Shown here: one piece after another, positions 18,417 to 18,578 of the stretch
Numbering within the stretch: the first letter of the stretch is position 1
Layout of the letters: every line of letters starts with the position of its first letter
Assembly: GCF_030013595.1 (NCBI RefSeq)
Contig: NZ_CP122768.1
Source of the DNA: Escherichia coli
Lineage (GTDB): Bacteria > Pseudomonadota > Gammaproteobacteria > Enterobacterales > Enterobacteriaceae
Length of the DNA stretch: 64,000 nucleotides
Reading direction: 5' to 3' (one strand)
Made by a program: the position numbers and the translations under genes
The notes under the pieces: model-generated
The model's database searches: none
The model's input: only the letters and a program-made list of their open reading frames with translations
What the model was told of the DNA's origin: nothing

Positions 18417-18430
18417 GATAAAACTCACTA

Positions 18431-18450
18431 AACTGTCTATGCGTACAGTA
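18431..18450. promoter_or_regulatory. LexA (SOS) box upstream of ydjM
   Basis: aaCTGTctatgcgtACAGta matches CTGT-N8-ACAG; a second degenerate half-palindrome (tacagtataggatttttatacagtg) follows at 18446..18470. Confidence 0.55.
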
Positions 18451-18578
18451 TAGGATTTTTATACAGTGCACGGAAGTGGTGACGGTGTAACTCTTTCTCT
18501 TAAATTGACGATTAATCCGTCAGTTGAATGCAAATTCAGATAAAGAACCAGGAGCAGTGTGATCACTGCCCCTGGTCA

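Follow-up and report, generated by a model that had tools for sequence, protein, structure and literature searches.

What controls the expression of ydjM, and do the palindromes that lie in front of this gene form a genuine LexA operator? This question was raised by an initial annotation of the window (the whole stretch of 64,000 nucleotides that was analyzed), which had been made from the sequence alone and had placed tandem LexA-box-like palindromes immediately upstream of ydjM, reading them as consistent with a tightly repressed SOS gene of unknown function. The window is a piece of the E. coli chromosome, and 1 kb of it around the ydjM operator is found at 95-99.8% identity in 5,423 of the 5,426 complete genomes of this species, where it is annotated as ydjM and hxpB, and the local gene order (tcyP, ydjM, hxpB, yniB, yniA) is that of K-12 read in reverse. 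The regulated gene, to which E. coli genomes give the name ydjM, is an ORF of 196 aa on the minus strand (17826..18416) with its ATG at 18416, so that upstream corresponds to higher coordinates, and the palindromes do lie immediately upstream of it. YdjM matches the Pfam family PF04307, 'YdjM inner membrane protein', over residues 1-158 with 122.3 bits (cut-off 29; E = 2e-35), and the PDB contains no protein related to it in sequence. A 2024 paper describes YdjM as a 'poorly characterized inner membrane protein', in keeping with the unknown function given in the initial annotation, and reports that deletion of ydjM had no significant effect on the survival of TisB expression.

The gene upstream of ydjM, hxpB, ends with a stop codon at 18579..18581. 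Directly after it lies a terminator-like hairpin (18546..18577, minus strand) with a 14-bp stem containing 8 G-C pairs, followed by CTTTATCTGA, a weak T-tail. This hairpin separates ydjM from its upstream neighbor, and probably acts as the terminator of hxpB, protecting ydjM from read-through. Its stem differs from that of K-12 at positions 18553, 18558, and 18560. An Rfam search of 17600..19400 returned no family at E <= 1, and we therefore rejected a known small RNA or riboswitch as an occupant of the hxpB-ydjM spacer.

The minus-strand sequence leading to the ydjM ATG reads gtgCACTGTATAAAAATCCTATACTGTACGCATAGACAGTTtagtgagttttatcATG, and can be divided into CACTGTATAAAAATCCTA followed directly by TACTGTACGCATAGACAGTT, then 14 nt, and then the ATG. 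The second of these elements is the proximal, or primary, LexA box (18431..18450, minus strand), an imperfect 20-bp palindrome separated from the ATG by 14 nt. Written as CTGTACGCATAGACAG, it carries a complete CTG-N10-CAG core with both arms intact, the core of the E. coli-type LexA consensus TACTG(TA)5CAGTA. The 20-mer that had been called near-consensus, aaCTGTctatgcgtACAGta, was found exactly at 18431..18450 with the arms TACTGT and ACAGTT, but its spacer contains G+C, so the description fits the arms better than the center. The distal box (18449..18468, minus strand; CACTGTATAAAAATCCTATA) is auxiliary and half-degenerate. It keeps the left half, CTGTAT, but its right half is CCTATA rather than ACAGTA, with the result that CTG is present and TAT stands where CAG is expected, leaving only half of the core. 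Although the second palindrome in the initial annotation thus exists, it does not follow the first within 20 bp as had been described; the two boxes share 2 nt (TA). They start at -52 (distal) and -34 (proximal) from the ATG and together span 14-52 nt upstream of it.

We then asked how far such matches stand out from the background of the window. The bare motif CTGT-N8-ACAG occurs once in the 64 kb (at 18431..18450) against 0.64 occurrences expected, and at least one copy was present in 49 of 100 shuffles. Because the bare motif is not significant on its own, we used a full-length PWM instead, trained on 18 published E. coli LexA boxes (PMC3009722, Table 4). The ydjM boxes are absent from this training list, and circularity was thereby avoided. 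Over the 63,981 positions of the window, the proximal box scored 16.0 bits and ranked second, and the distal box scored 12.95 bits and ranked third; a LexA PWM scan was a check that the initial annotation had proposed. The top-ranking site (3991..4010, minus strand; CACTGGATAGATAACCAGCA; 20.6 bits) has the very sequence published as the LexA box of cho (ydjQ), so that a second known SOS operator is present in the window, approximately 14 kb from ydjM. Being part of the training set, the cho box acts as a built-in positive control. In 300 dinucleotide shuffles, we counted on average 0.32 sites of at least 12.9 bits and 0.043 sites of at least 16 bits per window, and none of the 300 contained two sites of at least 12.9 bits within 40 bp. 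The training boxes range from 13.2 to 27.8 bits, which places the proximal box at the weak end. With a symmetrized matrix built from the same 18 published sites, HI values were 10.2 for the proximal and 12.1 for the distal box (training range, 1.8-12.2), so that by HI both ydjM boxes fall within the range of verified sites. Real DNA gave a similar picture, as a scan of 281,370 positions around 80 ydjM orthologs yielded 136 hits of at least 11 bits in the ydjM promoter and 2 elsewhere. The observation of two LexA-box palindromes at ydjM is thus confirmed.

The looser pattern CTG-N10-CAG behaves differently in the window as a whole, with 22 matches against 11.2 expected from dinucleotide shuffles, a number reached in 0 of 100 shuffles. 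Nearly all of these matches are G+C-rich and lie outside the ydjM-hxpB spacer, and the excess is therefore probably due to CTG and CAG being abundant codons, not to LexA sites.

To follow the operator across enterobacteria, we surveyed one genome per species and obtained 80 ydjM loci from approximately 30 genera of Enterobacteriaceae, with 84-99% protein identity. The proximal box was found in all 80 loci at 11.5-21.3 bits. The distal box reached at least 8 bits in 77 of the 80, and in these it always began exactly 18 bp before the proximal one. The boxes are thus conserved upstream of orthologous genes, as is typical of LexA operators. Column by column, the proximal arms CTG and ACAG show little or no variation across the 80 loci, and the spacer positions vary; the distal left arm, ACTGTA, is kept in 78-79 loci. 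One of the three exceptions is Leclercia adecarboxylata, in which a 1-bp insertion shifts the register of the distal box. Two loci, Citrobacter amalonaticus S646 (L013) and Intestinirhabdus alba (L027), have the distal left arm TACTGT replaced by AGATGG and AGCCTG, respectively, at approximately -52 to -46 from the ATG, and still keep the proximal box and the TATACT, TTCCGC, and GTTACA motifs. They are natural single-box variants of the ydjM operator. Since the distal box has been lost in some lineages while the rest was retained, it acts in the manner of an accessory site. An 18-bp register held constant in 77 orthologs would be compatible with an interaction between LexA dimers, but is not proof of one. 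Moreover, the block of sequence upstream of the boxes is equally conserved, so that conservation alone is not specific to LexA.

Regulation of ydjM by LexA is well documented. A review lists ydjM among the E. coli SOS genes (PMC6590174), and tandem LexA sites at E. coli ydjM were experimentally reported by Fernandez de Henestrosa et al. in 2000, as cited in PMC4951493. RNA-seq of K-12 found that ydjM was induced 2.5-fold by AZT and was 8.6-fold lower in a lexA3 strain than in the wild type, indicating dependence on cleavable LexA (PMC11228462). The same paper tabulates an HI of 9.0 for the K-12 ydjM box, a value taken from Courcelle et al. 2001 as given there. A time course recorded induction of ydjM up to approximately log2 2.6 (PMC11002266), and the distal 20-mer has been listed as a LexA site that is missing from RegPrecise (PMC4576408). 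These sources agree with the initial annotation that ydjM is an SOS gene repressed by LexA, and the comparison of damage induction in lexA+ and lexA(Ind-) backgrounds that it had proposed has in effect been made in the literature, with a positive outcome. How tight the repression is can be stated only qualitatively: no fluorescence could be detected from a ydjM-gfp fusion in Salmonella (PMC8072944), but induction ratios in E. coli are moderate.

The tandem boxes are, therefore, the ydjM LexA operator already described, and the reading made from the sequence was correct but known. As regulation of ydjM through tandem boxes has been recognized since 2000, the finding itself adds nothing new. The evidence of Fernandez de Henestrosa et al. 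in 2000 reportedly came from Northern analysis of three strains, lexA+, lexA(Def), and lexA(Ind-). The operator does serve as a positive control, in that a reading of raw sequence located and interpreted a real operator correctly. A modest side value lies in the geometry that is fixed over approximately 30 genera, the invariant -10-like hexamer at the junction of the boxes, and the conserved block upstream of them, results that could guide work on the role of YdjM in the SOS response.

Comparison with named operators places the ydjM boxes among known LexA systems. The operator of K-12 ydjM (b1728) has the same locus, gene order, box positions, and 2-nt overlap, and an identical distal box, but differs by two substitutions in the proximal spacer, where K-12 has TACTGTACGTATCGACAGTT: position 18441 is C in the window and T in K-12, and position 18438 is A in the window and C in K-12. 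The C at 18441, which is also present in E. coli strain 2012C-4221, corresponds to a T-to-C polymorphism published for the LexA site of ydjM among E. coli lineages (PMC3444427). None of the 80 species carries an A at 18438. None of the complete E. coli genomes matched 18380..18520 of the window exactly, and the best three had one mismatch; in strain 2012C-4221, the single mismatch is position 18438. The 18438 substitution is therefore apparently private to the window strain. The proximal box scores 16.0 bits in the window and 14.9 in K-12, a small shift towards the consensus, and we do not expect a phenotype from the two substitutions.

In Salmonella enterica, ydjM (STM14_1605) has two boxes at distances of 14 and 32 bp from the ATG (HI, 9.12 and 12.85), and is induced 2.1-fold by nalidixic acid (PMC8072944). 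This 14/32-bp geometry is that of the window, and the two Salmonella loci in our survey (L032 and L049) agree with it; the Salmonella proximal box, TACTGTATGAATTGACAGTT, is nearer to the consensus, scoring 19.5 bits against 16.0 in the window. The pairing at ydjM of one weak and one strong site (12.95 and 16.0 bits), with ends overlapping by 2 nt, is the arrangement of a tandem operator. It recalls the tandem operators of lexA, recN, and the colicin genes, in which repression is strengthened by the pairing of a strong with a weak site, the two being adjacent or sharing their terminal positions (PMC4951493), and two of the three boxes of Salmonella recN (at 8 and 26 bp) are likewise 18 bp apart. 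Two differences stand out. Cooperativity has been demonstrated for the colicin operators (PMC4951493), whereas for ydjM it is putative, and in the weak site of ydjM, in contrast to those of lexA, recN, and the colicin genes, the CAG arm is wholly gone and coincides with a candidate -10 element.

How would LexA bound at these boxes silence ydjM? We found no mapped ydjM transcription start in the literature searched, and a simple, strict scan of the hxpB-ydjM spacer for the sigma-70 consensus found no promoter. The whole spacer was, therefore, scored with relaxed -35/-10 hexamers, using approximate frequencies from the compilations of Hawley-McClure and Harley-Reynolds. The best candidate in the spacer was TTCCGT-17-TATACT, here called P1. 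Its putative -10 element, TATACT (18447..18452, minus strand), is the best -10 match in the spacer and lies at the junction of the two boxes; it is invariant in 81 of 81 sequences, including the lineages that have lost the distal left arm. The candidate -35 element, TTCCGT (18470..18475, minus strand), would be a weak one, located 17 nt upstream of TATACT and matching TTGACA at 2 of 6 positions, although its two Ts and second C are invariant in 80 of 80 loci. An alternative promoter, P2, would consist of GTTACA-17-C/TACTGT, with GTTACA invariant in all 80 loci, and would also be covered by the boxes. In the two lineages without the distal arm (L013 and L027), P2 cannot operate. The boxes thus cover the best -10 candidates of the spacer. 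The overlap of the boxes with the likely ydjM promoter, as proposed in the initial annotation, can accordingly be upheld by inference from the TATACT at the junction, but not from a consensus scan.

These positions suggest a mechanism of repression. Transcription from P1 is predicted to start near 18440, which would place the distal box at approximately -28 to -9 and the proximal box at approximately -10 to +10. Two LexA dimers on two 20-bp sites with a 2-nt overlap would cover approximately 38 bp, including the -10 element and the predicted start. As the boxes cover both, we propose that LexA bound over this core promoter would exclude RNA polymerase. Upon DNA damage, RecA-stimulated self-cleavage of LexA would free the promoter and allow ydjM to be transcribed. 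The weak distal site most likely would add repression through cooperative, or simply additive, occupancy beside the stronger site, and under the P1 model its right half may be frozen as CCTATA because it has to serve as a -10 element. Together, these results support that 18431..18468 is very probably the operator of the SOS gene ydjM, at which two LexA dimers would occlude the core promoter.

Would the two palindromes nevertheless be explained in another way? That they are chance matches with no regulatory role has a practically negligible likelihood: the bare CTGT-N8-ACAG motif is indeed expected 0.64 times in a window of this size, but the PWM ranks, the shuffle null, the conservation with fixed geometry over 80 genomes, and the published dependence on LexA refute this reading. 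A more serious alternative is that only the proximal box is functional and that the distal 'box' has been conserved as promoter sequence (as a spacer, as a -10 region, or as the -10 element of a second promoter), its likeness to half a LexA box being incidental or vestigial. Such a reading would account for the right half being CCTATA, not ACAGTA, as this is the part that forms the invariant TATACT. T/CACTGT, which follows the invariant GTTACA at a distance of 17 nt, might in its own right act as a -10 element. The reading would also accommodate a score of only 12.95 bits, the omission of the distal site from RegPrecise, and the loss of the left arm in Citrobacter amalonaticus S646 and Intestinirhabdus alba with all else kept. 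However, ACTGTA is kept in 78-79 of 80 loci even though it falls in the spacer of P1, where no specific sequence is required, and the 18-bp offset is fixed in all 77 scoring orthologs. Moreover, the distal site is still the third best in 64 kb, PMC4951493 counts it as the second of two experimentally reported sites, and its Salmonella counterpart has an HI of 12.85. We therefore consider the reading of the distal box as promoter sequence unlikely, while recognizing that the missing CAG arm, the RegPrecise omission, and the two lineages without a left arm mean that the contribution of the distal box may be small.

It is also conceivable, although most improbable, that the promoter lies upstream of both boxes, as CTGAAA-17-ATTAAT (18511..18539), and that LexA bound at approximately +35 to +75 acts as a roadblock instead of by occlusion. 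This hexamer pair was named by the authors of a genomic SELEX study in which sigma-70 holoenzyme bound the yniC-ydjM spacer (PMC3946193), but the resolution of SELEX cannot single out one pair of hexamers. ATTAAT does not have the critical A at position 2 of a -10 element, and CTGAAA-17-ATTAAT was not among the 12 best-scoring -35/-10 candidates. The columns of these hexamers are approximately 30-90% conserved in a region with a mean of 68%, against 85-95% for the stretch from 18499 to the ATG. We infer, then, that occlusion of a core promoter located at the boxes is the better account of repression.

Upstream of the distal box lies a further conserved block, AGAGAAAGAGTTACACCGTCACCACTTCCGTG (18469..18499, minus strand), with a mean column identity of 93%. 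It includes GTTACA at 18486..18491, invariant in 80 of 80 loci. From 18499 to the boxes, column identity is 93-95%, falling to 68% further upstream. Just upstream of the block, most genera have TTGTGACAAAG, and K-12 and the window have TTAAGAGAAAG. LexA does not explain the conservation of 18469..18499, and the block may represent the -35 element or elements of one or two promoters, or the site of another factor. A comparison by eye with the consensus sequences of CRP, TyrR, ArcA, CpxR, and sigma-E gave no fit in both spacing and sequence. The sigma-S-like CCTATACT led us to search the literature for a dependence of ydjM on RpoS, but nothing specific emerged.

Expression of the membrane toxin TisB from a plasmid raised ydjM more than 4-fold without added DNA damage (PMC11575346). 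Either indirect SOS induction or a second input could lie behind this rise. We tentatively suggest, as a possibility that is rather doubtful, that the block at 18469..18499 is bound by a second regulator or belongs to another, overlapping promoter, and that it would combine the SOS response with another signal such as membrane or envelope stress. If this were true, the two-box operator would be needed to silence the overlapping P1 (-10 TATACT) and P2 (-10 TACTGT) promoters.

Elsewhere in the window, we considered a cho-box-like 20-mer at 19977..19996. We set it aside as a chance match, given its score of only 7.2 bits, its position within the yniA coding sequence, and its different sequence in K-12. 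The yniA gene also carries a 1-bp deletion relative to K-12 (20396..20397, minus strand; CAACGTTTTTT to CAACTTTTTT), which shifts the frame and splits the gene into ORFs of 261 and 97 aa. The split is either a pseudogene in the window strain or a sequencing error in the T-run.
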